IMG/VR virus record: IMGVR_UViG_3300044645_001661
Direction: 5' to 3' (one strand)
DNA length: 64,000 bases
Origin: a virus
Taxonomy: Duplodnaviria > Caudoviricetes
Part shown: piece after piece, positions 15,438 to 64,000 of the stretch
Position numbering within the stretch: the first letter of the stretch is position 1
Layout of the letters: each line of letters opens with the position of its first letter
Program-made: the position numbers and the translations under genes
Notes under the pieces: generated by a model
Databases searched by the model: none
What the model saw: the letters and a program-made list of their open reading frames with translations, nothing else
What the model was told of the DNA's origin: nothing

Positions 15438-17195
15438 ATGAAAAAGTTGTCTGAAGACCACAAAGAAATTGCAAGTGGTAAAAGAAAAGATGATGAAGGA
15501 TATATGGCTCGCAATGAAATGGATGCTATTGAGAGATCCATTAATAAATTAAGAAAGGTTATAAAAAAAAGCGATACTCAACTTCCAGCTTGGGTTCAAT
15601 CTAAAATTACTAAAGCGGCAGATTATATTGATACTGCTGCAGAATATCTCCAAAGTGATGAAAGTGTGGATGAAGAAGTAAGTGCAACAATTAATACACA
15701 AAAACATAAAGAAGCAAGAAAGCAAGAAAAAATTCGTGGTTTGGCAAAAAGTTCCAATCCAAATGAAGCACAAGTTGCAAAATCAAAATTAAGACCTTCT
15801 GCTTCCGTATCTTTGCCAAGTTTTAAAAAAGAAGAAATTTCTCTAGTACAAAAAATTCTTGGTGAAGAAAAATGTGGTAACGGGATGTATTGGTGTAACA
15901 CTGATAAAGTATGTAAACCCCTACCAGACGGGTTTAAAGTAAACGGTCAAAAGAAAAAACCAACAGAGGTTGGTATTGGTAAACCAGTTGCTGAGGCAAT
16001 GGGTTGTAATCACACCAAAAAAGGAAAATCATGTCCAGTTCATGGAAAAGATGACTGTGCAATGAAGGAAGAAATAGATCCAAAAGGTCCAGTTAAATCA
16101 TACAAATCACCAGAAGAAATTGCTAAAAAGCATGGGGTTTCACTTGAAACAATACAAAAACAACTTAAGATTGGAATTAAAGTAGAAGGTGAGCACACAT
16201 CAAATAAAACATCAGCAAGAATTACCGCATTACAACATTTAGATGAGGTTCCAGATTACTACACTAAACTTAAAAAAGTTGAAAAGAAATCTAATACAAA
16301 TGAAAGTGTTACAATTGAAGATATGTTCGGTAACACATTCGTTGAATTCATTGATTTAATTACACCCCAAGATGTTATAGATGAAGCAAAACTTCAATTT
16401 ACTCGTCGTGCTGCTGGAAGATTAGATGGTGTAAAAAAAACTGGTGAAGAAAAAGCATTAAACAAAGCAAATAGATTAAGCAATTCACAAAATCCTAAAG
16501 ACCGCCAGAGAGCAAATAAAATTCGCAAAACTGCAAAAACAGTTGCTGATAGAGATGCTGCACAAGCAGGTTCTGATGCAAGACAAGAATTATATCGTAG
16601 ACAGCAGAGAAGGGCAAATGATCTTGCTAAACAATTGATGCAAAAAGAGGATATTGAAGAAGCAGTCAGAATTCCATCACAAAATGGTCAGTTAATGGTA
16701 ATTATGTTTACTTGGAGAGGTAAATCTTATTCGTTAAGAATGTTCTTCCCTCAAATAAAAGTACCTTCAAGAAAGGAGGTTGAATATGAATTGCAAAAAG
16801 TTTACCCAGAAGCAAAAGTTCTACACGCTCAAATAACAGATTTGAGACCTGGTGGAGATCCTATTGTTCAAGTTCAAAATTCACCATCAAAAAATTATCT
16901 ATTAAATAACAAGACTATTGGTGAAGAATTAGAAGAAGATTGGCAGTCAGTAAATCGTAAAGATAAGACTGATGGATTAAGTCAAAAAGCAGTTGATGCA
17001 TATCGCAAAGAAAATCCAGGTTCAAAGTTACAAACTGCAGTAACTGAAAAAAAGCCTGAGGGCAAAAGGGCTGATCGCCGTAAGTCCTTTTGCCGCAGAA
17101 TGAAAGGTATGAAATCAAAATTGACTTCTGCCGAAACTTCAAGAGATCCAGATAGCAGAATAAACAAAGCATTAAGACGTTGGAATTGTAATTAA
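15438..17195 (+). CDS. Modular hypothetical protein (585 aa), candidate internal head polyprotein
   Basis: A string of unrelated small basic modules (LPAWVQSKIT, Cys-rich, CPVHG, DUF5661-like EHT...HLDE.PDYY, C-terminal RRKSFC.RM.G...WNC) joined by acidic xxEE linkers. Confidence 0.7.
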   Translation: MKKLSEDHKEIASGKRKDDEGYMARNEMDAIERSINKLRKVIKKSDTQLPAWVQSKITKAADYIDTAAEYLQSDESVDEEVSATINTQKHKEARKQEKIRGLAKSSNPNEAQVAKSKLRPSASVSLPSFKKEEISLVQKILGEEKCGNGMYWCNTDKVCKPLPDGFKVNGQKKKPTEVGIGKPVAEAMGCNHTKKGKSCPVHGKDDCAMKEEIDPKGPVKSYKSPEEIAKKHGVSLETIQKQLKIGIKVEGEHTSNKTSARITALQHLDEVPDYYTKLKKVEKKSNTNESVTIEDMFGNTFVEFIDLITPQDVIDEAKLQFTRRAAGRLDGVKKTGEEKALNKANRLSNSQNPKDRQRANKIRKTAKTVADRDAAQAGSDARQELYRRQQRRANDLAKQLMQKEDIEEAVRIPSQNGQLMVIMFTWRGKSYSLRMFFPQIKVPSRKEVEYELQKVYPEAKVLHAQITDLRPGGDPIVQVQNSPSKNYLLNNKTIGEELEEDWQSVNRKDKTDGLSQKAVDAYRKENPGSKLQTAVTEKKPEGKRADRRKSFCRRMKGMKSKLTSAETSRDPDSRINKALRRWNCN

Positions 17196-36463: not shown

Positions 36464-36961
36464 ATGATAACTACAAATACTATGACTAAAAGAAAAAGGT
36501 CAGTTCATTATGTTAACAATAAAGATTTTTTGGCAGCATTGATTGAATATAAAAAAGAAATTGCTGCAGCTCAAGATAGAGGAGATCCAAAACCACGAAT
36601 AACGAATTACTTAGGAGAATGCTTCTTAAAGATCGCAACTCACCTATCTTTTAAACCTAATTTTGTCAACTATATTTTTAAAGATGACATGATTTCTGAT
36701 GGTATTGAAAATTGTGTTCAATACATTCATAATTTCAATCCAGAGAAGTCACAAAATCCATTTGCTTACTTTACTCAGATTATTCACTATGCATTTCTGA
36801 GAAGAATTCAAAAGGAAAAGAAGCAGTTGGAGATTAAGAATAAAATTCTTGAAAGAACTGGATATGATGAAGTCTTCTTTGATGACAATCATATTGACGG
36901 AATGAATTATTCTGACTATAATAGTATTAAGGATAGTATTCATTCTAAAACAAGGTACTGA
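36464..36961 (+). CDS. gp55: Late-transcription sigma factor gp55
   Basis: HYVNNKDFL, YLGECFLKIATHLS.KPNF.NY, DMISDGIENC, NPFAYFTQIIHYAFLRRIQKEKKQ. Confidence 0.95.
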   Translation: MITTNTMTKRKRSVHYVNNKDFLAALIEYKKEIAAAQDRGDPKPRITNYLGECFLKIATHLSFKPNFVNYIFKDDMISDGIENCVQYIHNFNPEKSQNPFAYFTQIIHYAFLRRIQKEKKQLEIKNKILERTGYDEVFFDDNHIDGMNYSDYNSIKDSIHSKTRY

Positions 36962-54571: not shown

Positions 54572-55948
54572 ATGGAAAGTGTTGAACTTACAGTTTTAAA
54601 AAATTTAATATTTAATGAAGACTATTCTCGAAAAGTAATACCTTTTATAAATCTAGAATATTTTGAAGATAATTCCCAAAAAATTATTTTTGAAGAAACT
54701 GTAAAATTTATTTTAAAATATAATTCTCAAATTACAACAGAATCTCTTTTAATTGAAATATCTAATAGAAAAGATATAAATGAAAGTGATATTAAATCTT
54801 TAACTTCTTTAATTAATTCATTCGATTATCAACCATCCGATCAAAAGTGGTTAATTGACATCACTGAAAAATGGTGTAGAGATCGTGCCATTTATTTGGC
54901 TTTGATGGAATCAATTTATATTGCTGATGGTAAAGATGAAAAGAAGAACCGAGATGCTATTCCTTCAATTTTATCTGACGCTTTAGCAGTATCTTTTGAT
55001 AATAATATTGGTCATGATTATCTATTAAATTATGAAGAACGATATGATTATTATCATAGGAAAGAAGATAAAATAGAGTTTGATTTAGAATATTTTAATA
55101 AAATTACTAAAGGAGGACTCCCCAATAAAACTTTGAATATTGCTTTGGCAGGAACTGGTGTTGGTAAATCTCTTTTTATGTGTCATGTGGCATCTTCGGT
55201 TTTAGTTCAAGGTAAAAATGTGTTGTACATTACTCTTGAAATGGCAGAAGAAAAAATTGCCGAAAGAATTGATGCTAATTTATTGAATGTTCCTATTCAA
55301 CAATTGTCAGAATTGCCAAAAGCAATGTTTGAAAGTAAAGTTAATACACTTGCAAATAAGACACAAGGATCTTTAATCATTAAAGAGTATCCAACTGCTT
55401 CTGCACATTCTGGTCACTTCAAGGCACTTCTTAATGAACTTGCTCTTAAGAAATCATTTAGACCTGATATTATTTTTATTGACTACCTTAATATTTGTGC
55501 TTCCTCTAGGCATAAGGCAAATAGCTCTGTCAATTCTTATTCGTATATTAAGTCAATTGCAGAAGAACTTCGCGGTTTGGCAGTGGAATTCAATGTTCCC
55601 ATTGTCTCTGCTACCCAGACTACCCGCAGTGGTTATGGCAACTCTGATGTTGAACTTACTGATACTAGTGAGTCCTTTGGTCTCCCTGCTACTGCTGATC
55701 TTATGTTTGCCCTTATTAGCACTGAAGAGTTGGAGAATTTAGGTCAAATTATGGTTAAACAATTGAAGAATCGTTATAATGATCCAACAATTTATAAGCG
55801 GTTTATTGTTGGTATTGATAGGGCAAAAATGAGATTGTATGATTGTGAACAATCTGCTCAAAATGATATCGTTGATAATACTGAGTATTCAGAATCTAAT
55901 GAAGATAAAACATTAAAAAAAGAAAAATTTAATGGGTTTAAATTTTAA
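54572..55948 (+). CDS. gp41: Replicative helicase gp41
   Basis: AGTGVGKS, YITLEMAE, IFIDYLNI, SATQTTRSG, SESFGLPATAD, QLKNRY. Confidence 0.95.
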   Translation: MESVELTVLKNLIFNEDYSRKVIPFINLEYFEDNSQKIIFEETVKFILKYNSQITTESLLIEISNRKDINESDIKSLTSLINSFDYQPSDQKWLIDITEKWCRDRAIYLALMESIYIADGKDEKKNRDAIPSILSDALAVSFDNNIGHDYLLNYEERYDYYHRKEDKIEFDLEYFNKITKGGLPNKTLNIALAGTGVGKSLFMCHVASSVLVQGKNVLYITLEMAEEKIAERIDANLLNVPIQQLSELPKAMFESKVNTLANKTQGSLIIKEYPTASAHSGHFKALLNELALKKSFRPDIIFIDYLNICASSRHKANSSVNSYSYIKSIAEELRGLAVEFNVPIVSATQTTRSGYGNSDVELTDTSESFGLPATADLMFALISTEELENLGQIMVKQLKNRYNDPTIYKRFIVGIDRAKMRLYDCEQSAQNDIVDNTEYSESNEDKTLKKEKFNGFKF

Positions 55949-55956
55949 TATTGTTT

Positions 55957-55987
55957 GGTAAAGAATTATATGTTCTTTACCTTTTTT
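55957..55987 (+). terminator. Intrinsic terminator after gp41
   Basis: GGTAAAGAA-ttatatg-TTCTTTACC 9-bp stem followed by TTTTTT. Confidence 0.8.
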
Positions 55988-55993
55988 ATTACC

Positions 55994-56001
55994 TATAAAT
56001 A
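55994..56001 (+). promoter_or_regulatory. Late promoter TATAAATA heading the glyco-modification operon
   Basis: Perfect T4 late consensus just after the terminator, 24 nt before ATG 56026. Confidence 0.8.
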
Positions 56002-56025
56002 AAATCACGAATAAAAATATAATTG

Positions 56026-57105
56026 ATGAAAAAATTATTTAAAATATTGACAAGTGAAAGAGTTGAATATAATAAAAAAAGTATAAAAATTTTTGATATG
56101 TTGAGATATTCATCCCATATTAGTAATATTTTGGAAAGTGACAAAAATAATTATATTAAAAATATGTGTTTATTTTTGGGAAAAAAAATAAGTAATAATA
56201 CAATCTTTTTTATTGATGATGAGAAATTTGAGCAGCAATACGAAAAACTTGAAGTATTTTTTGAGTTTATAAAAAGAATAGATGCTAAAAATAAAAATAT
56301 AATTTATATTGTAAAAACACAAATATTTGCAGACTATTTTGAAAAGTATGGAATAAAAAATTATATATTTGAACCATTATTGGAAGTTATTAATTTTTAT
56401 TATGGGTCTTTCAGAATAAGAAAATCTTTAGTAGGTGATAAAATAAAAGATGTATCATTTTGTTCATTGAATGGTACAAAAAATCAAGTTAGAGAATTTC
56501 TATTGTATAGATTAAATGATTATAATTTGTTACCTGAGGGATATGTTACTGCATGTGGACAATTTTTTCTCGATTTAAATGGTGAAGTCAAAAACCATAT
56601 ATTTGAAGATAAATTTTTTGATAAATTTTATTATGATGAAGGTCATAAATATTATCAAGATAAAAATTTAGTAAATATTCTTTATATTGATAAAAATATT
56701 CCAGGAAATATTTTTTTAACTGTGGAGTCATTTAATTACGATAAAATAGAAGAATCATTAAGACCACTATATACTGAAAAAACTTCTACTCCATTTTTAA
56801 CAAAAAGATTGCCTTTAATTATTGGATATATGAATATTATTGAAAATCTTAAAATGGATGGGTTTGATATGTTTGATGATATAATTGATTATGAATATGA
56901 TAAAATTGATCACATGGACTATCAAAAAAAAGTTGATCTTTGTATAAAAAATAATTCACATATTCTTAAACATAATAATTTTTATGATAATCCAGAAATT
57001 GATGAGAGATTGGAATACAATAAAAAACATTATAATGTGTGGGTAGAAAATAAAATTTTAAACTTTGAATCTAATATAGAAGAAAAATTAAAGTTATTTG
57101 TTTAG
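56026..57105 (+). CDS. Hypothetical protein, possibly GT-B/GT10-like glycosyltransferase
   Basis: C-terminal VES...LYTEKTSTPFLTKRLPLIIG...GFDMFDDIIDYEYD resembles the TEK motif region of GT10-like enzymes; a weak by-eye match. Confidence 0.45.
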   Translation: MKKLFKILTSERVEYNKKSIKIFDMLRYSSHISNILESDKNNYIKNMCLFLGKKISNNTIFFIDDEKFEQQYEKLEVFFEFIKRIDAKNKNIIYIVKTQIFADYFEKYGIKNYIFEPLLEVINFYYGSFRIRKSLVGDKIKDVSFCSLNGTKNQVREFLLYRLNDYNLLPEGYVTACGQFFLDLNGEVKNHIFEDKFFDKFYYDEGHKYYQDKNLVNILYIDKNIPGNIFLTVESFNYDKIEESLRPLYTEKTSTPFLTKRLPLIIGYMNIIENLKMDGFDMFDDIIDYEYDKIDHMDYQKKVDLCIKNNSHILKHNNFYDNPEIDERLEYNKKHYNVWVENKILNFESNIEEKLKLFV

Positions 57106-57112
57106 ATATATT

Positions 57113-57643
57113 ATGGAAGATAAATTTATTACTGGTAAAATAGATAGTAATTTAATTGGGGATTTTAAAAATATAGATTATCCTGGAAGAAGGCAATTTA
57201 GGGATGATGAAACTGTTGAGAGGTGGAAAAATCTTGGGCATTTGTATGTAAATTATACTGGATTTATTCGTGAAGAATATAGAGGTCTACCTGATTGGTG
57301 TAATTTAGTACTTGATGAAATAAAAAATCAATTAAAAATTTATAATATTTCTTGCTCTCTATATCGTATGCCTCCAGGAACAATAATGCCAGAACATAAA
57401 GATGCATATTTGAATTATAAAAAAATATTTAAAATAGATGATGTGAATAATATTTGTAGAGTATTAGTATTTTTGGATGATTGGAAATCTGGGCATTATT
57501 TTGAATTGAATGATAATCCAGTGATACAATGGAAATCTGGAGATTACTACATGTGGACTGGAGAAACACCACACATTGCTGCTAATATTGGAAGAGAAAA
57601 TAGATATACAATGCAGATAACTGGAACTATTGATCATGGATGA
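57113..57643 (+). CDS. 2OG-Fe(II) oxygenase
   Basis: MPPGTIMPEHKD (HxD), distal PHIAAN His, and a 2OG-binding Arg in RYTMQIT. Confidence 0.75.
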   Translation: MEDKFITGKIDSNLIGDFKNIDYPGRRQFRDDETVERWKNLGHLYVNYTGFIREEYRGLPDWCNLVLDEIKNQLKIYNISCSLYRMPPGTIMPEHKDAYLNYKKIFKIDDVNNICRVLVFLDDWKSGHYFELNDNPVIQWKSGDYYMWTGETPHIAANIGRENRYTMQITGTIDHG

Positions 57644-58361
57644 AAGAAGAGCCGTTATAGATGAGTTAGTAAAAAATTATCCTAATTACTGCTCAACCTT
57701 TACATTTAAATTGAAAAAAGGTATACCTGGAGAAGTAATACACAAAGAGGGTTTTGTTAACTGTTATATGGATGTAAAAAATTATCTTATTTACATGCAT
57801 ATTGATAAGTGTGCGAGTACATCAATAACTACTGCACTAAGAGATCAAAAACCATATTTTGTAAAAATGGATGATATTCCAAAATCTGAAGAATTTGCTA
57901 AACTTTTGGTCCAAAAAGAATATACATTTTTTACTGCAGTTAGAGATCCAATTTCTAGATGGATGTCTGGATTGAATGAATTTATGTGTAGATATAGACC
58001 TCCAATTAATTATGTTATTGAACAACTTAAAAATAAAAAATATGTTTTTGATGAGCATACCGCACCACAACATTTGTTTTTAAGATTATGTTTAGAAAAT
58101 AATGGAAATCTTATTTGTGTAAAAATGGATTCTGATATGGAATTTAAAATTAATGATGTTATTAGGTGTTCTTTAAAAAATGAATTTATGCGTGAAAAAT
58201 ATATCCCACTTAAAATTCCACAATTAAGGAGTTCAAAATATTTTATACCAAATTATATAAGTGTATGTAAAAAAATGTATGAAGTTTATGTAAAAAATGA
58301 TCCTGAAGAATTTAATAAATTATATAAAATTGATTTTGATTTATACAATAATGCACTATGA
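57636..58361 (+). CDS. Sulfotransferase (family 2-like)
   Basis: 5'-PAPS loop YMHIDKCASTSI and 3'-PAPS motif FTAVRDPISRWMS, plus H..PQ. Confidence 0.7.
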   Translation: MDERRAVIDELVKNYPNYCSTFTFKLKKGIPGEVIHKEGFVNCYMDVKNYLIYMHIDKCASTSITTALRDQKPYFVKMDDIPKSEEFAKLLVQKEYTFFTAVRDPISRWMSGLNEFMCRYRPPINYVIEQLKNKKYVFDEHTAPQHLFLRLCLENNGNLICVKMDSDMEFKINDVIRCSLKNEFMREKYIPLKIPQLRSSKYFIPNYISVCKKMYEVYVKNDPEEFNKLYKIDFDLYNNAL

Positions 58362-58960
58362 ATAGTTTCGATACCGTAAAGAAATTAGAAGAATTAATAG
58401 CAAACTTTTTTGGATCACCATATGCAGTTGCAACTGATTGTTGTACCCATGCTATAGAATTGTGTTTAAGATATGAAAAGTATGACAATATTGAAATTCC
58501 AGAACAAACGTACATTTCAATTCCATTTACTGCAGAAAAACTTAATTTAAAATGGTCTTGGAAAAAAAATTATACCTGGCATGATCATTATTACATTTGG
58601 AATACAAATATAATAGATGCGGCTGTTTTTTGGGAACGGAATGGATATATACCAAAAACATATATGTGTTTAAGTTTTCAGTATAAAAAACATTTAAATC
58701 TTGGTAAAGGTGGCATGATACTATTAGACAATTATGATGCTTATACTGATCTTAAAAAAATGGTTTATGATGGTAGAGAATCTGATAAACCATGGGGAGA
58801 ACAGAACATTAAAACAATAGGATATCACTACTACATGACACCAGAAACTGCTGAAACTGGTATACATAAGTTTGAAGAAGTATCTTCTATGAAACCAAAA
58901 AGATGGAGTTATCTTAATTATCCATTTTTACCTAGTATGGATGTATTTAAAAAATTATGA
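58358..58960 (+). CDS. Short DegT/DnrJ/EryC1/StrS-type PLP aminotransferase
   Basis: YAVATDCCTHAIELCL, IDAA, SFQYKKHL.LG.GGMIL (PLP lysine region), GYHYYM; only 200 aa. Confidence 0.7.
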   Translation: MNSFDTVKKLEELIANFFGSPYAVATDCCTHAIELCLRYEKYDNIEIPEQTYISIPFTAEKLNLKWSWKKNYTWHDHYYIWNTNIIDAAVFWERNGYIPKTYMCLSFQYKKHLNLGKGGMILLDNYDAYTDLKKMVYDGRESDKPWGEQNIKTIGYHYYMTPETAETGIHKFEEVSSMKPKRWSYLNYPFLPSMDVFKKL

Positions 58961-59835
58961 ATTTAGATAATAAATTAAAAGGATTACCTCCAATATTTTA
59001 CCTAAATCTGGATCACAGAACAGATAGAAAGGAATATATGGAAGGGCAATTTAAAGAAAGAGGTATAACAGATTATACTAGAATATCAGCATCTCGATTT
59101 GCTACATCTAAAATTGATGAATGGGGGCATAGATTAGATTTGATGTTATTGGCTAAATCTGATGCATCTATCGTAATGAATCAGTTTACTACAATAATTG
59201 ATTGGTATAATTCTGGTATATCAGAAACTTGTATAATAATGCAAGATGATCTCAGTTTAGAATTAATTGATTATTGGATGTTTGATTGGGAAACAATTGT
59301 AAAAAGTTTGCCATATAATTGGGATTGTGTTCAATTTTATCATTGTCATAATGAAGAAATGCGTATGCACTTACATAAAAGAAGTTATGGAAGCTCATCT
59401 GCTGCTTGTTATATGATTAATAGATGGTACGCAGAAAAATTAATTAAATTGCACTTGCAACCAGATAATTCATTCAAACTTAAAAATAATTTAAAAGATG
59501 TAAGTGTTCCTAAAGAGTGTTATAGTAGTGATGATTTTCTATTATATCAAATTGGTGTAAGTTATAGTTTACCAATTTTGTGTTTGAATCAAAGACTTTC
59601 TCAAACTCCCGATAACAAATTGCAGGAAGATGAAACTGATGAAGACTATGATCCAGTAATAAGCATATATCATAATAAAATTCATGATATACTTGCTAGT
59701 ACATGTGTGAGAAGATGGTGGGAGAATGAAAGTTCAAAATATAAAGCGGAAGATATTTTAAGTTACGGTGGTTCAATCCATAGAAAAATGATCGTTCCTA
59801 TTCCTAAATTTAACAGAAAGGTACTTCCAAAATGA
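58957..59835 (+). CDS. GT25-like glycosyltransferase paralog 1
   Basis: YLNLDHRTDRKEYME, RISA, IIMQDD, LPYNWDCVQF. Confidence 0.65.
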   Translation: MNLDNKLKGLPPIFYLNLDHRTDRKEYMEGQFKERGITDYTRISASRFATSKIDEWGHRLDLMLLAKSDASIVMNQFTTIIDWYNSGISETCIIMQDDLSLELIDYWMFDWETIVKSLPYNWDCVQFYHCHNEEMRMHLHKRSYGSSSAACYMINRWYAEKLIKLHLQPDNSFKLKNNLKDVSVPKECYSSDDFLLYQIGVSYSLPILCLNQRLSQTPDNKLQEDETDEDYDPVISIYHNKIHDILASTCVRRWWENESSKYKAEDILSYGGSIHRKMIVPIPKFNRKVLPK

Positions 59836-60695
59836 ATATAGAATTAAATAAATTAAAAACAATAGGATTTCCCAAAGTTTTTTATTTGAATGCGGATTCT
59901 AGACCAGATAGGGGAAATTATATAGAATCATGTTTTGAAAAATGGGGAATAGAACGATACGAAAGAATTCCTACAAGTAGATATACTCCAACCAATTATC
60001 ATGAATGGGAAGATTTAATTTTAGATGATAATATTTTACAAACTCCAGAGGAAATATCTAAAACTATCAATCATTTAAAAACAATAATTGATTGGTATGA
60101 TAATGGGGATGAAGAATATTGTATAATAATGGATGATATTATTGATATTAACTCAATAGATACTTGGATGTTTGATTGGGAAACTCTATATAAAAATCTT
60201 CCATATAATTGGGATTGTGTGCATCTATTCTTTTATAGTAATAGAACTATTAATATGCACCTAAAACCAAAAGACGATGATACTAAGGGTGTGTATTGTT
60301 ATATGATAACACGACAATTTGCTAAAAAAATTAAACAACTTCATTATGTTGATGATAAGTTTAAATTTTTTGTTAATACTAGAAATTTAAAACTACCAGA
60401 ATATAAGTATGGATCTCTAGAATCATTTTTATTTGATTTGGGTATAACCTATACATTGCCCGTATTTTATTTGAGTCTAAAATATTTTGGTGAACCTAAA
60501 GAATTGGAAGATATTTTATGTAAACTTTCTTCGGAATCTATTGAGTTTTGGTGGAAAATAAAGTCTAAAGAATTTTCCATGCAAGAATTTTTCTCATACA
60601 ATAAAAGATATGATTGGAAAATGGAAGTTCTTTTTGACGTAAAAGAAAAACAAGTATATATGGATAAAGTTGAAAAAATAATGTTATGGATTTAA
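59832..60695 (+). CDS. GT25-like glycosyltransferase paralog 2
   Basis: YLNADSRPDR, NHL, IIMDD, LPYNWDCVHL. Confidence 0.65.
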   Translation: MNIELNKLKTIGFPKVFYLNADSRPDRGNYIESCFEKWGIERYERIPTSRYTPTNYHEWEDLILDDNILQTPEEISKTINHLKTIIDWYDNGDEEYCIIMDDIIDINSIDTWMFDWETLYKNLPYNWDCVHLFFYSNRTINMHLKPKDDDTKGVYCYMITRQFAKKIKQLHYVDDKFKFFVNTRNLKLPEYKYGSLESFLFDLGITYTLPVFYLSLKYFGEPKELEDILCKLSSESIEFWWKIKSKEFSMQEFFSYNKRYDWKMEVLFDVKEKQVYMDKVEKIMLWI

Positions 60696-61540
60696 AGAAC
60701 AAATTAAAAAATATGCCGAAAGTCTATTATTTTAATTTGGATAATAGAACTGATAGAAAAAAATATATGGAAAAACAATTTGATAGGTGGGGCATAACCT
60801 ATCAAAGAATATCTGGAACAAAATACTTAGCATCAAAAAATAAAGAATGGAATCATTTAATTATTGATGTAAAAAATTATAAGTTATTAGTTCCAATTGC
60901 AGCTAATGCAATATCTCATTTGGAATTTTTGAAGAAATGGTATGAAGAAACAACAGATCCATATGTTCTGTTGATGGAAGATGATTATGATTTAAACTTG
61001 ATACAATATTGGCATTTTGATTGGGATTACTTGATGTCAAGATTGCCATATGATTGGGATTGCTTGCAACTAGGATTTGAAAATCCAATAGGGATACCTT
61101 TTTATCTTCATCCGATGGCAACCTCTCATGATTTTGGTCCATGTTTACTTAGTAGAGATTATGTTTATAAATTAATCTCATTACACTGTGTCGGTGATAA
61201 GTACAAGTTAATTAATACAATATCCAATGGTGCCTGGAATGCAGAAGAAGGTGGATGTGGTTCTGGAACGGTAGATTATTTTATATGCCACTGTGGAAAA
61301 ACCTATTCTATACCTTTAATAACAATAAATCCAACATTCGGTAGTTTCGAAAATAATAGTCTACTTCAAAAACTCTATAGAAATAATGGGGATGTAATGG
61401 CTAGAAATACATATTATTATTGGTGGCAAAATGAAAGAGATAAATTTACCTTAGATGATTTTTTTACTTATGGTAAAAAATATGACCGTAAGATGATATT
61501 GGATCAAAATAAATATGGAAACTATAGACCTAGAAAATAA
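60686..61540 (+). CDS. GT25-like glycosyltransferase paralog 3
   Basis: YFNLDNRTDRKKYME, ISHL, LLMEDD, LPYDWDCLQLG. Confidence 0.75.
   Translation: MDLKNKLKNMPKVYYFNLDNRTDRKKYMEKQFDRWGITYQRISGTKYLASKNKEWNHLIIDVKNYKLLVPIAANAISHLEFLKKWYEETTDPYVLLMEDDYDLNLIQYWHFDWDYLMSRLPYDWDCLQLGFENPIGIPFYLHPMATSHDFGPCLLSRDYVYKLISLHCVGDKYKLINTISNGAWNAEEGGCGSGTVDYFICHCGKTYSIPLITINPTFGSFENNSLLQKLYRNNGDVMARNTYYYWWQNERDKFTLDDFFTYGKKYDRKMILDQNKYGNYRPRK
60974..61062 (+). repeat. 89-bp perfect direct repeat, copy 1 (in GT paralog 3)
   Basis: Identical base-for-base to 63513..63601. Confidence 0.9.
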
Positions 61541-62420
61541 ATTAAGGGGATTCCCCCATGTATATTATTTTAATCTCGATCAAAAAACTGATCGTAAAAA
61601 GTACATGGAAACCCAATTTGATCGTTGGGGTATAGAATATACTAGAATGTCATCTAACATATATTCTATATGGAATTATGACGATTGGACTACAAATAAG
61701 GTAACTGGTGACAAAAGTGATACCGATCAAAGACTTTATGCCCCAGCAATGATGCATTTTGAGTTATTTAAAAGGTGGTTACATGATACAGACGAAGAAT
61801 ATATTCTTGTAATGGAAGATGATTATGATTTAAGTTTAATCGAATATTGGCATTTTGATTGGAATTATTTGATGTCTAAATTGCCTTATGATTGGGATTG
61901 TATTCAATTGGGATTTGAGACTTCAAATGTAATATCATTTTACCTTCATCCAGTAAAAGAAGATTATTCATTTGGACCATGTTTATTTAAAAGAGAATAT
62001 GTAGAAAAACTTTTAAGACTTCATTCTGAAGGATTTAAATATAGATTTGATTTTAACATTTCCAATTGTCATTGGAGAGATAGAAGAAATTATAAAAATG
62101 CTGCAGGTTCTTTAGAATATTTTATGTGTCAATCTGGAAGAACGTATTCAATTCCTTTAATCGCTTTAAATCCTTATTTTAGTTTTTGGTATTATAAGGA
62201 TAAATGGATACCAAAGTCTTACTTTCAAATGTGCTATGATTCTTATTATGATTGGTGGCAAAATGATAGAGACAAATTCACTTTAGATGATTTTTTTACT
62301 TATGGAAAGGTAAATGATAAAATTATGGAAAGAAATCTAGAATATTGTGACACTAAATATTTTGAAGAAAAGACCAAAGTATGTAGAGAAAAATTTTTGA
62401 AAGAATATGGATTTAAGTAA
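61515..62420 (+). CDS. GT25-like glycosyltransferase paralog 4
   Basis: YFNLDQKTDRKKYME, MHF, LVMEDD, LPYDWDCIQLG. Confidence 0.75.
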   Translation: METIDLENKLRGFPHVYYFNLDQKTDRKKYMETQFDRWGIEYTRMSSNIYSIWNYDDWTTNKVTGDKSDTDQRLYAPAMMHFELFKRWLHDTDEEYILVMEDDYDLSLIEYWHFDWNYLMSKLPYDWDCIQLGFETSNVISFYLHPVKEDYSFGPCLFKREYVEKLLRLHSEGFKYRFDFNISNCHWRDRRNYKNAAGSLEYFMCQSGRTYSIPLIALNPYFSFWYYKDKWIPKSYFQMCYDSYYDWWQNDRDKFTLDDFFTYGKVNDKIMERNLEYCDTKYFEEKTKVCREKFLKEYGFK

Positions 62421-63207
62421 TAAGTTATTCGGAATACCAAAAGTATATTATTTTAATTATGATGAGCATAAAAATAGAAATTACCATATGGACAGAAATC
62501 TTGGTAATTTGAAAGTTGCTAATTATGAAAAAGTTTCAGCATCAAAATATACTTCTAAAAATTATGAAGATTGGAAAAATTTGATTATTGATGTTGAGAA
62601 TTATAAATTAACTCCAAATATTGCTGGATATGCAATTACTGTATTGGAATTTTTAAAAAGATGGTTAGAAGAAACTGATGAACCAGAATTAATTATAACA
62701 AAAGATACTATTGATTTTGATTTAATTGAATACTGGAAATTTGATTGGAATTATTTAAAATCCAGACTTCCTTATGATTGGGATTGTATTCAACTTGGAT
62801 TTGAAAATTCTCAGTATATACCATTTTATTTACATCCAATACTTCCTTCTAGTACTTTTGGTCCATCACTTCTCAATAGACACTATGTTAAAAAAATAGT
62901 TAAATTGCATTGTGTTGGAGATCAATATAAGTTGAATAATTATATTGCAAATATGTATTTCAGTGGACAATCTGGAACAGTTGATTATTTTATTGGACAT
63001 AATGGCAATACATACTCAATGCCACTATTCCCTAATAAACCAGAATTTTTTGACAAGAATACTAAAAAGTATGTTTTAGTTTACATTTGTAAAAATGCAT
63101 ATCATGAATGGTGGAAGCGAGAAAGTGGCAAATTTAATTTGGATGAGATATTTACTTATGGAAAATATAATGATATTGGAATGGTAAAAAAACTTCGTAA
63201 AAAATAA
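62407..63207 (+). CDS. GT25-like glycosyltransferase paralog 5 (degenerate motifs)
   Basis: YFNYDEHKNR, IITKDT in place of MEDD, LPYDWDCIQLG. Confidence 0.65.
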   Translation: MDLSNKLFGIPKVYYFNYDEHKNRNYHMDRNLGNLKVANYEKVSASKYTSKNYEDWKNLIIDVENYKLTPNIAGYAITVLEFLKRWLEETDEPELIITKDTIDFDLIEYWKFDWNYLKSRLPYDWDCIQLGFENSQYIPFYLHPILPSSTFGPSLLNRHYVKKIVKLHCVGDQYKLNNYIANMYFSGQSGTVDYFIGHNGNTYSMPLFPNKPEFFDKNTKKYVLVYICKNAYHEWWKRESGKFNLDEIFTYGKYNDIGMVKKLRKK

Positions 63208-63215
63208 TTAAAATT

Positions 63216-64000
63216 ATGAACATTAATTTGTCAAACAAACTAAAAGGACTGCCACACATCTATTATGTAAATTTGGATAATAGATCTGATAGAAAAAAAT
63301 ATATGGAGTCCCAGTTTGATTTTTGGAGAATAAAAGATTACACTAGAGTATCTTCTTCAAAATACTTAGCATCTGAATCTGAATCTTGGGCAAATAAAGT
63401 TATTGATGGGAGCATAAAAAATCTATCATCATATGTTGTTGGTAATGCAATAACACACTTAGAACTTTTAAAAGATTGGGTTAATAATTCTAGTGATGAA
63501 TATGTCATTTTAATGGAAGATGATTATGATTTAAACTTGATACAATATTGGCATTTTGATTGGGATTACTTGATGTCAAGATTGCCATATGATTGGGATT
63601 GTATTCAATTGGGATTTGAATCAAAAGAATTTATTCCATTCTTTTTACATCCTAAATTGAGACATAGTTATTTTGGTCCTATTATGATTACTAGAGAGTA
63701 TGCTAAAAAAATATTGCGATTGCATTGTGTCGGTGAAGACAAATATAGTTTAGATAAATTAATTGCTGATTATAATTTTAAAGTTTGTTCTACTTCTGTA
63801 GATTACTTTATGGGACATACTGGCAGAACGTACTCTATTCCATTAATAACTACAAATGTTGATCTAGGTAGCACTGAAAGTGATATACAAATAGAAAGAA
63901 GACATCATGTTAAATCTAGAGCCGCATACTATTATTGGTGGATGAAGAGAAGTATGAAGTATAATCTAGATGAATTTTTTACCTATGGAAAACCAAATGA
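63216..64000 (+). CDS. GT25-like glycosyltransferase paralog 6 (3'-truncated by the window; not in ORF track)
   Basis: Hand translation MNINLSNKLKGLPHIYYVNLDNRSDRKKYME...ITHL...ILMEDDY...LPYDWDCIQLG; open to the window end. Confidence 0.75.
   Translation, partial: MNINLSNKLKGLPHIYYVNLDNRSDRKKYMESQFDFWRIKDYTRVSSSKYLASESESWANKVIDGSIKNLSSYVVGNAITHLELLKDWVNNSSDEYVILMEDDYDLNLIQYWHFDWDYLMSRLPYDWDCIQLGFESKEFIPFFLHPKLRHSYFGPIMITREYAKKILRLHCVGEDKYSLDKLIADYNFKVCSTSVDYFMGHTGRTYSIPLITTNVDLGSTESDIQIERRHHVKSRAAYYYWWMKRSMKYNLDEFFTYGKPN
63513..63601 (+). repeat. 89-bp perfect direct repeat, copy 2 (in GT paralog 6)
   Basis: Identical base-for-base to 60974..61062. Confidence 0.9.

Follow-up and report, generated by a model that had tools for sequence, protein, structure and literature searches.

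Sequence-based prediction of a strongly conserved 12-gene sugar-chain-building cassette in a freshwater T4-like cyanophage

Why a T4-like phage should carry a long block of sugar-transferring and sugar-tailoring genes directly behind its primase-helicase, and to which acceptor the sugars would be attached, is the question raised by the last 8 kb of the window, i.e. the 64,000 nucleotides of viral record IMGVR_UViG_3300044645_001661 analysed here. The original prediction was of a late-transcribed, undescribed pathway yielding a sulfated amino-sugar glycan for virion proteins or the host surface. Comparison with related loci points to a freshwater T4-like cyanophage whose 12-gene cassette is strongly conserved and should build a sugar chain. 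gp41 is 82% identical in amino acid sequence to that of S-SRM01, in which mazG directly adjoins gp41, and 77% to that of P-SSM2. The transcription unit is 10.7 kb long with 13 genes, ORF1 through mazG, 12 of which form the island between gp41 and mazG; the window covers its first 8 kb.

36464-36961, gp55
54572-55948, +, gp41, DnaB-like primase-helicase, last gene of the upstream replication transcript
55957-55987, +, intrinsic-terminator-like hairpin and T6 run (10-bp stem, 3 G-C pairs, 5-nt loop)
55994-56001, +, T4-type late promoter core TATAAATA, 24 nt upstream of the ATG at 56026
56026-57105, +, ORF1, 359 aa, 20.7% GC, first gene of the unit
57098-57643, +, Fe(II)/2-oxoglutarate (2OG) oxygenase, double-stranded beta-helix, 176-181 aa
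57630-58361, +, family-2 (carbohydrate-type) sulfotransferase, ~241 aa (PF03567 25.0, cut-off 22)
58358-58960, +, minimal DegT/DnrJ/EryC1/StrS-type PLP sugar aminotransferase, 200 aa, large domain only (PF01041 52.8 bits)
58957-59835, +, GT25-like glycosyltransferase paralogue a (phrog_2835 1.5e-40; clade support 100/100; dN/dS 0.026)
59832-60695, +, GT25-like paralogue b, most divergent (phrog_2835 2e-36; clade support 100/100; dN/dS 0.085)
60686-61540, +, GT25-like paralogue c (PF01755 29.1, cut-off 24; phrog_2835 2.8e-45; clade support 100/98; dN/dS 0.020)
61515-62420, +, GT25-like paralogue d, missing in part of the related islands (dN/dS 0.021)
62407-63207, +, GT25-like paralogue e, acidic motif K-D-T-I-D in place of E-D-D-Y-D (dN/dS 0.041)
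63216-64000, +, GT25-like paralogue f, truncated at the window edge (whole gene to 64034 in extended coordinates)
64065-65039 (extended coordinates, beyond the window edge; L008:14962-15936:-), StrB1-type amidinotransferase
65036-66259 (extended coordinates, beyond the window edge), NDP-sugar 6-dehydrogenase
66307-66717 (extended coordinates, beyond the window edge), mazG
66724-66742 (extended coordinates), terminator 3' of mazG

Enzymes of the island

The prediction of an operon of enzymes that build and tailor sugars is borne out, its genes being co-directional and tightly packed, as is its description as a very AT-rich run of nearly all overlapping ORFs: neighbours overlap by 4-26 nt or stand 8-47 nt apart, and GC content is 20.6% in 56001-57000 and 25-31% over the rest, compared with 31-34% upstream. 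A check for NDP-sugar enzymes downstream of the window finds the amidinotransferase and the nucleotide-sugar dehydrogenase, then mazG and a terminator. None of the cassette products has a membrane segment (highest 19-residue-window mean hydropathy <= 1.37), and all are predicted to be soluble enzymes.

The oxygenase, whose true start is probably the ATG at 57113, scores below threshold against Pfam AspH PF05118 (19.9, cut-off 22.6), but its fold agrees with the assignment (AF2 model pLDDT 78.8; Foldseek matches to AsqJ, AndA and P. putida P4H, E about 1e-7), as does an HxD..H..R motif invariant in 10 orthologues. The sulfotransferase passes its Pfam threshold, and its K60-x-x-S63-T64-S65 and R105-D106-P107..R110..S113 motifs are invariant in 7 orthologues. 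The aminotransferase, found in 74 of 80 related loci, is likewise above threshold although only 200 aa long; its profile matches perosamine synthetases and other sugar aminotransferases (E about 1e-9), Lys111 (in SFQxKKH..GxGG) and Asp87 are invariant, but at half the usual size it may serve a different role. The amidinotransferase, with StrB1 as its best solved match (E = 5e-59), keeps its catalytic residues (FDAAN, HIDT, GGFHC), and the dehydrogenase its GGAC.

Where at least six GT25-like genes had been claimed there are exactly six, all matching phrog_2835 (1e-34 to 1e-50), with only one of them passing the Pfam GT25 threshold. In the tree each one forms a separate clade together with its orthologues in six further islands (support at least 100/98), so that the six are ancient orthologous groups. 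Their best solved match is weak, at E = 0.001 over the N-terminal 95 residues, to Mimivirus R655, a putative collagen glycosyltransferase (PMC9546862); a search for collagen-like repeats found none.

For ORF1 the earlier GT-like label is unsupported: it has no Pfam, PHROG or NCBIfam match, its single-sequence fold reaches pLDDT 36, and its nearest named Atlas cluster is GT10 at 0.80, a score that often arises by chance. With six homologues only among 5.8 billion proteins, the same site in L010, L011 and L172 and also L173 (41% identity, 5 nt after the gp41 stop), and dN/dS of 0.11, ORF1 is a lineage-restricted gene.

Transcription signals ahead of the cassette

The strong terminator that was said to end the replication transcript is present as a hairpin at 55957-55981 with arms GGTAAAGAAT and ATTCTTTACC, followed by TTTTTT (RNA fold -12.7 kcal/mol, z = -5.5; 0 of 200 shuffles equally stable), although with merely 3 G-C pairs it may be an RNA-stability element instead of a full stop. 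The perfect TATAAATA seen at 55994 is an exact match, and it is avoided elsewhere in the window, since 4 copies are observed against ~13 expected from shuffles. Over the whole 148.8-kb record the coding strand is favoured 14:2 for TATAAATA and 55:5 for ATAAATA; 27 of the 55 coding-strand ATAAATA copies are intergenic, although only ~8% of the record is non-coding, and these typically lie 18-40 nt from the following ORF. Five of the 14 TATAAATA copies lie directly 3' of a hairpin and T-run, as at 55957-56001, the five modules having no common sequence. The octamer is that of T4 late promoters (gp55/gp33/gp45), and gp55 is encoded in the window. The motif is a real signal in this phage, and a credible gp55-type late promoter heads the cassette. 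A hairpin and promoter module at the border of a hyperplastic insertion likewise characterizes the mobile promoter/stem-loop cassettes of T4-type phages reportedly described by Arbiol, Comeau and Krisch in 2010; those are said to carry early promoters, whereas the one here is of late type.

In this lineage alone a ~70-nt terminator and late-promoter module precedes the unit, so transcription here should depend on gp55. The terminator after gp41 is common only to the closest relatives, L010 and L011, and in 28 of 30 related islands with a gp41 junction the first cassette gene starts at -21 to +17 nt relative to the end of gp41, unless a different ORF intervenes, and the junction has no terminator or ATAAATA. 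The argument from late timing to a virion or surface target therefore does not generalise, the wiring being peculiar to this lineage; nor would late timing rule out DNA modification, since Mu mom is a late gene that modifies DNA. The cassette would in most relatives be read through from the gp41 replication operon. As the replication genes of cultured cyanomyoviruses are middle genes (PMC7238727, PMC5082946) and the cassette adjoins gp41 in most relatives, it is apparently normally wired to the middle class.

The part of the original prediction that set aside DNA-precursor supply is supported, such a role being unlikely, and the related idea that amino-, guanidino- or sulfate-bearing sugars are placed on phage DNA bases, cf. 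T-even glucosylation and base J, is highly improbable. It draws on the position of the cassette within the uvsX-gp41-...-mazG replication operon of most relatives, and on the resemblance of a 2OG oxygenase plus GT-A transferase to base J logic, in which the oxygenase acts first and a GT-A transferase follows. However, searches of this record turned up no ThyA-family dCMP/dUMP hydroxymethylase, TET/JBP oxygenase or C5-methyltransferase, and those of the complete S-SCSM2R genome no ThyA-family hydroxymethylase or TET/JBP oxygenase (sole TET/JBP match 15.6 bits, cut-off 34.9), so that no genes for DNA hydroxymethylation were detected in either; the oxygenase resembles small-molecule and prolyl hydroxylases rather than TET/JBP; and six transferases with sulfation are without precedent on DNA. 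A review moreover sees no evidence of DNA modification or glycosylation by cyanomyoviruses (PMC2984593).

Distribution and known relatives

The order AspH-like oxygenase, sulfotransferase, DegT, GT25a-f, amidinotransferase and UDP-glucose-dehydrogenase-like gene (UGDH) between gp41 and mazG recurs in ~35 metagenomic phage loci at 40-97% amino acid identity, and the amidinotransferase is encoded in 181 IMG/VR stretches. Among 50,697 GenBank phage records the amidinotransferase occurs in S-SCSM2R only, and a single GT25-like gene in 98 cyanophage records. Cellular amidinotransferase homologues are at most 40% identical and have no further cassette genes within 10 kb, and in a sample of 301 genomes drawn from the class to which one cyanobacterial MAG belongs the GT25-like profile matches a single genome; by these sequence comparisons the island is shown to be a phage-specific cassette, long inherited. 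Purifying selection on the cassette is strong throughout (every gene has a dN/dS of 0.02-0.16, with gp41 comparable at 0.04).

The possibility that such DNA is a stuffer without function, or consists of LPS genes of host origin in decay kept for headful packaging, has been raised for cyanophage LPS clusters (PMC3037559) and would suit an AT-rich region at a hyperplastic position; selection and synteny effectively refute it here, as every ORF is intact, dN/dS is low, order and orthology are kept over dozens of diverged phages, and catalytic residues are invariant.

To call the pathway undescribed was an overstatement. LPS-like clusters of large cyanomyoviruses have been known since 2005-2010; those of P-SSM2, S-SM2 and S-SSM7 are likewise nucleotide-sugar and glycosyltransferase blocks in hyperplastic regions of T4-like cyanophages (PMC3037559, PMC2984593), from which this cassette differs in its gp41-mazG position, its six ancient GT25 paralogues and its aminotransferase-amidinotransferase pair. 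A 2025 paper assigns the homologues in Synechococcus phage S-SCSM2R to "cell wall" and "antibiotic synthesis" genes, handling them separately and not recognising a single pathway (PMC12801897). There ORF301-310 form one co-directional block with homologues of the amidinotransferase (66% amino acid identity), the minimal DegT-like enzyme (56%), the GT25-like enzymes (30-44%) and the small 2OG oxygenase (28%), but in another order and genome place, without the sulfotransferase, which is limited to the gp41-mazG version, or the UDP-sugar dehydrogenase, and with an added GT2 gene and large P4H-type oxygenase.

Predicted chain and acceptor

The product of the cassette should be a sugar chain decorated with amino/guanidino and sulfate groups. 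A nucleotide sugar would be oxidised by the UDP-glucose-dehydrogenase-like enzyme, a substrate hydroxylated or oxidised by the 2OG oxygenase, a keto sugar converted to an amino sugar by the minimal DegT-type enzyme and the amine to a guanidine by the amidinotransferase with arginine as donor, following the logic of streptidine synthesis; sulfate would be added by the sulfotransferase, and sugars one by one by the six non-redundant GT25-like GT-A transferases. The amidinotransferase and dehydrogenase, which lie beyond the window edge, shift the expected chemistry to a guanidino or uronic sugar. Since no lipid-carrier gene, flippase, polymerase or further membrane protein is encoded in the cassette, chain assembly would take place in the cytoplasm, straight on the acceptor.

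The streptidine branch of streptomycin (StsC-type enzyme and StrB1, PDB 1bwd) uses the same two families, and the cassette amidinotransferase aligns with StrB1 over its full length and keeps the Asp-His-Cys triad; for a cyclitol, however, the cassette has neither an inositol-phosphate synthase nor a dehydrogenase or kinase, and its aminotransferase is half-size. A free glycoside with guanidino or amino groups, similar to an aminoglycoside or an osmolyte, acting on host or competitors and attached to no macromolecule, would fit this pairing, as well as the NodU/TobZ-type carbamoyltransferase added in a rearranged version of the cassette, the "antibiotic synthesis genes" label of the S-SCSM2R authors (PMC12801897), and the DegT, oxygenase and amidinotransferase trio that is the most constant core, sometimes with few GT genes nearby (L085-L087). 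It is nevertheless improbable: the cassette contains neither a cyclitol synthase nor a kinase or exporter, and cellular amidinotransferase loci lack every other cassette gene. Four to six glycosyltransferases, each conserved on its own, are also a large number for a small glycoside, and more than known aminoglycoside pathways employ. The presence of GT-A transferases and a sulfotransferase as partners indicates a sugar rather than a cyclitol acceptor.

The account as a whole, a lineage-specifically rewired, long-inherited phage cassette that builds a sugar chain most likely on virion proteins, is given a probability of about 45%. The phage's own virion proteins, probably tail-fibre-like, are tentatively the likeliest acceptor, and here gene linkage lends the original virion-glycosylation proposal an independent support that its timing argument did not. 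In the rearranged cassette, also found in isolate S-SCSM2R, two paralogous tail-fibre-like genes stand just upstream on the same strand (Atlas clusters "Tail fiber protein family", near Gp10_C and Collar, scores 0.92-0.98), each with a (T/G)ATAAATA motif upstream, and the GT25 genes are separated from them by a P4H-type 2OG oxygenase; the string persists through rearrangements in ~30 loci. BLAST finds no homologues of these tail-fibre-like genes in the present 77%-complete record. Because of this link to late-promoter tail-fibre-like genes, virion-protein glycosylation is favoured over host-envelope remodelling.

As a comparison, a DegT-type aminotransferase, GT25-like R655 and hydroxylases occur together in mimivirus. 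In the virion glycosylation systems of mycobacteriophages (capsid and tail; Freeman et al. 2023, cited in PMC12801897), chloroviruses and mimivirus (PMC9546862), soluble virus-encoded transferases are reported to assemble glycans in the cytoplasm, bypassing host export; the cassette differs in that its enzymes, in most relatives, are not beside structural genes. A separate observation that runs against a virion acceptor is that most gp41-mazG islands are wired to the middle-class replication operon, at a stage that precedes virion protein synthesis.

In bacteria, GT25 enzymes serve as lipo-oligosaccharide transferases that likewise have no membrane segments and act at the inner side of the membrane, so the solubility of the products does not exclude a lipid acceptor. 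Decoration of the infected cyanobacterium's lipid A-core, of a different glycolipid or of a polymer on its cell surface, with export by host machinery, is unlikely, though a serious candidate; it would mean superinfection exclusion, progeny kept from adsorbing to debris, or grazer evasion. PF01755/GT25 is by name the bacterial LOS beta-1,4-galactosyltransferase family, lipid hydroxylases occur among PF05118 relatives (LpxO belongs to this family), and the fold search returns the ornithine-lipid hydroxylase OlsC. Cyanophage "LPS clusters" have also traditionally been read in terms of envelope remodelling (PMC2984593, PMC3037559, PMC12801897), and middle-class wiring in most relatives would leave hours for surface change (PMC5082946). 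Against it, the cassette encodes neither a phosphoglycosyl transferase to initiate synthesis nor a flippase, polymerase, ligase or other membrane protein, the GT25-like family is almost missing in the sampled cyanobacterial genomes, and the rearranged version is tied to tail-fibre-like genes. The cassette is moreover nearly invariant over freshwater and marine phages while picocyanobacterial surface glycans are hypervariable (PMC2984593); one cassette-bearing phage infects 20 strains of both Synechococcus and Prochlorococcus (PMC12801897).

Source genome and boundaries of the transcription unit

The window corresponds to the minus strand of an IMG/VR virus record of 148,843 bp whose completeness is put at 77%. 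Its gp41 helicase shares 82% amino acid identity with the gp41 of the freshwater Synechococcus phage S-SRM01 and 77% with that of P-SSM2, which assigns the source phage to the T4-like cyanomyoviruses. Near-identical DNA is present in 20 lake-water metagenomes, and among the sequencing runs listed for a 9.5-kb stretch and for one gene none is of RNA; megablast with the 8.1-kb stretch that follows the helicase gene found no match among GenBank phages. Two signals lie between gp41 and the first ORF of this stretch:

55957-55987, + strand: hairpin followed by T6, with a 10-bp stem, directly 3' of the gp41 stop (55948); -12.7 kcal/mol, z = -5.5
55994-56001, + strand: late promoter core, a perfect TATAAATA, 12 nt past the end of the stem and 24 nt 5' of the first ORF's ATG

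The first is a stable stem-loop followed by a U-run, as in an intrinsic terminator, with only 3 G-C pairs in its stem. For the second, a T4-type gp55-dependent late promoter was defined as TATAAATA (in cyanophages NATAAATA, the accepted cyanomyovirus motif) standing as the sole promoter element a few tens of nucleotides 5' of a gene (PMC2984593); its 24-nt distance to the ATG agrees with a genome-wide spacing of 18-40 nt. The motif is a real signal in this genome and not a chance word of AT-rich DNA, since the window holds 4 copies against ~13 expected from shuffles. In the whole record TATAAATA occurs 14:2 and ATAAATA 55:5 on the coding versus the other strand, and 27 of the 55 ATAAATA copies are intergenic in a record whose non-coding share is ~8%, with another 8 at most 40 nt from the next start. 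The late sigma factor gp55 is itself encoded at 36464-36961 of the window (phrog_234 "late sigma transcription factor", E = 3.8e-68). At the sequence level the predicted terminator and late promoter ahead of the operon are thus borne out, as is the AT-rich, tightly packed run of ORFs that follows, with GC contents of 20.7-29.5% and overlaps of 4-26 nt or gaps of 8-47 nt.

A hairpin and T-run directly precede TATAAATA in 5 of its 14 copies in the record, so that "terminator then late promoter" is a house style of the phage. In coordinates that carry the window numbering past 64000 into the parent record, such modules, with differing stems, stand at borders of gene blocks at 66724-66755, 72680-72713, 79330-79364 and 124590-124627; their build is reminiscent of the mobile promoter/stem-loop cassettes known from T4-type phages, with the difference that here a late promoter is carried. 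A AATAAATA at 61508-61515 lies within the 3' end of the transferase gene GT25c and reaches the ATG of GT25d; that leaves too little distance for it to serve GT25d in the usual geometry, and it is probably due to chance.

Past the window edge the unit adds three genes, encoding a StrB1-type amidinotransferase, a UDP-glucose-dehydrogenase-like enzyme and the conserved cyanophage MazG, and its first strong terminator is found directly 3' of mazG (66724-66742), with TATAAATA next. In S-SRM01 mazG adjoins gp41, and the twelve genes between the two here are therefore a 10.3-kb insertion. An 11/12 sigma70-type match (TTGACT-17-TATAAT) at 64024-64052 (15949-15977 on the minus strand of the parent-record locus L008) occupies the 30 nt that separate GT25f from the amidinotransferase gene, and three further 11/12 matches are found at ~64819, 66048 and 67443; these may serve the distal genes as internal promoters of the early or middle class.

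Enzymes of the cassette

The original prediction of a glycan-tailoring operon proposed reading the downstream DNA for NDP-sugar enzymes, and on sequence grounds it is supported; the two enzymes found there, the amidinotransferase and the dehydrogenase-like protein, extend it by a guanidino-sugar logic and a putative supply of uronic acid. The amidinotransferase aligns over its full length with StrB1 (PDB 1bwd; E = 4.7e-59, residues 5-323), and its Asp-His-Cys triad (FDAAN, HIDT, GGFHC) aligns with that of StrB1 and is invariant in 11 orthologues; with full-length homology and triad it falls in the AGAT/StrB1/SxtG/HsvA family. Among GenBank phages the only other group bearing such an enzyme comprises T4-like phages of Campylobacter (CPt10, CP20, vB_CcoM-IBB_35 and others), whose distant homologues are 24% identical over the full length. 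UDP-glucose/GDP-mannose dehydrogenases combine an N-terminal NAD domain, a central domain that bears the catalytic cysteine and a C-terminal UDP-binding domain. The dehydrogenase-like enzyme passes the thresholds of PF03721 and PF00984, keeps the catalytic cysteine in its GGAC motif and matches phrog_9148 (4e-95); it gives no match to the C-terminal PF03720, and its TIGR03026 score of 144.7 is below the cut-off of 189.8. A short second UDP-sugar-dehydrogenase-like gene (253 aa), 26-28% identical to the island's enzyme, lies 5' of the cassette in three relatives of one sub-lineage (L012, L013 and L015, ~1460-2220).

Within the window the assignments differ in firmness. ORF1 (359 aa) had been called GT-like, a label that finds no support: it matches no family, has 6 homologues among 5.8 billion proteins, and yields a single-sequence AlphaFold model with a pLDDT of only 36, because of which it is left without a functional assignment. 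The small 2OG/Fe(II) oxygenase scores 19.9 bits against PF05118 (aspartyl/asparaginyl beta-hydroxylase), below the gathering threshold of 22.6, and retrieves nothing from profile or sequence searches of solved structures; its modelled DSBH fold (pLDDT 78.8) and invariant HxD..H..R place it in the broader Fe(II)/2OG DSBH superfamily, in keeping with its prediction as an oxygenase. The sulfotransferase is likewise upheld, passing PF03567 (family 2; 25.0 bits vs 22) with invariant K-x-x-S-T-S and R-D-P..R..S, which we take to be the 5'-PSB and 3'-PB PAPS-binding motifs; the same searches of solved structures returned no relative. The predicted PLP aminotransferase stands in part. The protein passes PF01041 (52.8 vs 19.8), finds sugar aminotransferases in a PDB profile search (E = 2e-9), and keeps the PLP-binding lysine (K111) and the pyridine-nitrogen aspartate (D87) in 10 orthologues, but at 200 aa (195-212 aa in all orthologues) it is half the length of the canonical two-domain DegT form (~360-390 residues) and lacks the C-terminal domain as well as a portion of the large one. 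It is best filed as DegT-derived rather than as a canonical member of the DegT/DnrJ/EryC1/StrS family.

Where at least six GT25-like genes had been counted there are exactly six (GT25a-f), all matching phrog_2835 (1e-34 to 1e-50). Only paralogue c exceeds the PF01755 gathering threshold of 24 (29.1), the others scoring 20.9-21.7, 17.7 or giving no match, and these matches span only positions 1-98 of the 199 in the profile. One aspartate of E-D-D-x-D is invariant in all six paralogues and 38 homologues, and paralogues b and e retain D-x-x-D; a putative DxD-type metal/nucleotide-sugar motif of GT-A enzymes is present. When 56 GT25-like proteins are placed in a maximum-likelihood tree, each paralogue forms its own clade (support 100/98 or better) with orthologues from six other islands, which argues that the array is old and that its copies have not been homogenised. 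Among solved structures the sole, weak match of the GT25-like profile is Mimivirus R655 (E = 0.001).

Distribution, selection and promoter wiring

The amidinotransferase is encoded on 181 IMG/VR stretches, and mapping of the island proteins onto 80 fetched loci of these reveals two architectures. In type 1 (~35 loci, 40-97% amino acid identity) the present gene order is found between gp41 and mazG, and variation is limited to ORF1, which is rare, and paralogue d, which is missing in some. Type 2 (~30 loci and the isolate S-SCSM2R) lies elsewhere in the genome and is ordered as 3-4 GT25-like genes, the DegT-like gene, the oxygenase, the amidinotransferase, 1 GT25-like gene and a NodU-type carbamoyltransferase that replaces the sulfotransferase. 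Relative to the closest relative, dN/dS is 0.02-0.16 across all island genes and 0.04 for gp41; constraint on the amidinotransferase (0.035) and on five of the six GT25-like transferases (0.02-0.04) matches that on the helicase, with paralogue b at 0.085. Stuffer DNA has been raised as a possibility for cyanophage clusters (PMC3037559) and is set aside here on these dN/dS values and the old orthologous array. Recent capture from a host is likewise rejected, since the amidinotransferase homologues of 80 cellular loci are at most 40% identical and none is accompanied by another cassette gene, and since the GT25-like profile matches in 1 of 301 sampled genomes from the class (a label that is inferred) of a cyanobacterial MAG. 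The cassette is, as judged from these comparisons, an old, strongly selected and phage-specific pathway. "Undescribed", as the original prediction had it, applies in part: LPS-like clusters of cyanomyoviruses are already known, and a 2025 paper places the S-SCSM2R homologues under two unrelated headings and proposes no function for them (PMC12801897); what appears to be new is that the genes form a single conserved cassette specific to phages, that it comes in two architectures and that its six-fold transferase array is ancient.

The promoter arrangement is far less conserved than the genes. Among 30 loci that cover the end of gp41 as well as the first cassette gene, the hairpin, TATAAATA and ORF1 are shared only by the two nearest relatives. 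In 21 the distance from the gp41 stop to the start of the oxygenase gene is -21 to +17 nt (e.g. TAATATG), and in 7 (L014, L023-L025, L041, L042 and L046) another ORF of 539-947 nt, differing among these loci, is inserted exactly at that stop; the junction is an insertion hot spot. In none of these 21 + 7 loci is ATAAATA found between gp41 and the first cassette gene, nor is a promoter-positioned copy found within up to 3.9 kb upstream. Arrival of terminator and promoter together with ORF1 as one moron was considered and rejected, as in a further relative, L173, the start of an ORF1 homologue (41% identity) lies 5 nt past the gp41 stop with neither signal. In cultured cyanomyoviruses the genes for replication and nucleotide metabolism belong to the middle class (PMC5082946, PMC7238727); the ancestral wiring of the cassette would therefore be middle-class read-through, and the insulated late wiring a recent change in the source lineage. 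A temporal class for the P-SSM2 GT25-like gene was not found in PMC7238727. Type-2 operons start behind (T/G)ATAAATA motifs, and the cassette has therefore come under late-type promoters on more than one occasion. The argument that late timing points to virion proteins or the host surface and away from DNA is weakened and not general, and a caution follows for such reasoning: a promoter present in a single genome may reflect recent rewiring, and relatives should be checked before function is inferred from timing.

Acceptor of the predicted glycan

Bacterial LPS, O-antigen and capsule clusters include an initiating polyprenyl-phosphate transferase, a flippase or ABC transporter, and a polymerase or ligase. 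The cassette differs in that none of these families is found among its products, which also contain no membrane segment (19-mer mean hydropathy never >1.37). This argues for assembly in the cytoplasm, where the chain would be built straight onto its acceptor. The host envelope as that acceptor is less probable than a virion protein; decoration of the host, if true, would bear on superinfection and grazing. Release of the product as a free glycoside is rather improbable. Transfer to DNA is most improbable of all, as its prerequisites appear to be missing: no ThyA-type hydroxymethylase, TET/JBP or C5-methyltransferase is found in the source record (77% complete), and neither hydroxymethylase nor TET/JBP in the complete S-SCSM2R genome or two other cassette-bearing records. 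A collagen-like acceptor was rejected, as (G-X-Y) runs of at least 6 are absent from the whole 148.8-kb record.

The strongest pointer to an acceptor comes from type 2, where a conserved string of genes, spaced by 3-38 nt, lies directly upstream of the cassette and shares its strand (L061:2430-5624 and ~30 other loci):

type-2 string, same strand: two tail-fibre-like paralogues of 170-180 aa, each behind a late motif, with SHTHP/HSHP motifs
type-2 string, same strand: Cys-rich protein of 114 aa, 82-95% identical in the main type-2 loci and 55-73% in rearranged ones
type-2 string, same strand: acidic protein of 170 aa
type-2 string, same strand: double 2OG oxygenase of 389 aa with two 2OG-oxygenase domains, one of P4H type

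In the Atlas the two paralogues fall in "Tail fiber protein family" clusters near Gp10_C and Collar (scores 0.92-0.98), and the linkage of string and cassette is kept through rearrangements in ~30 loci. tblastn of the source record found none of the type-2 tail-fibre-like genes. It is this linkage, together with the weak match to R655 (PMC9546862), that favours, by association, glycosylation of tail-fibre-like virion proteins; a virion protein is the most probable target, at somewhat short of even odds. Virus-encoded virion glycosylation systems are defined by a shown virion glycan that needs viral transferases; for the cassette the evidence is indirect and consists of the linkage to late tail-fibre-like genes in type 2.

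The full scheme, to which a probability of roughly 0.3 is given, is a phage-specific pathway in which an amino sugar would be amidinated from arginine to a guanidino sugar, and 4-6 GT25-like enzymes would assemble an oligosaccharide, sulfated in type 1 and carbamoylated in the other version, directly on a tail-fibre-like virion protein that is perhaps hydroxylated before glycosylation. If true, T4-like phages would here have their first virion glycosylation system, and no guanidino-sugar glycoconjugate would precede this one; the system would be found widely among cyanophages of fresh water and the sea, and decoration of tail fibres would probably bear on adsorption or host range. Cyanomyoviruses kill a large share of the picocyanobacteria in oceans and lakes, and the "LPS-like" genes of their large genomes have gone twenty years without explanation. 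The cassette, with its unusual predicted chemistry of amidino transfer onto a sugar, is carried by at least 181 environmental phage contigs and by one cultured isolate of unusually broad host range, S-SCSM2R, through which the question is directly testable.

In the source phage the genes 3' of mazG also lie behind late motifs. One of them, at 72749-73519 in extended coordinates (L008:6482-7252:-), follows a terminator and TATAAATA and encodes a 256-aa Ser/Thr/Ala/Gly-rich protein whose C-terminal part is conserved in type-1 relatives and whose Atlas neighbour is the "Tail fiber protein family" (0.95), making it a possible acceptor candidate.
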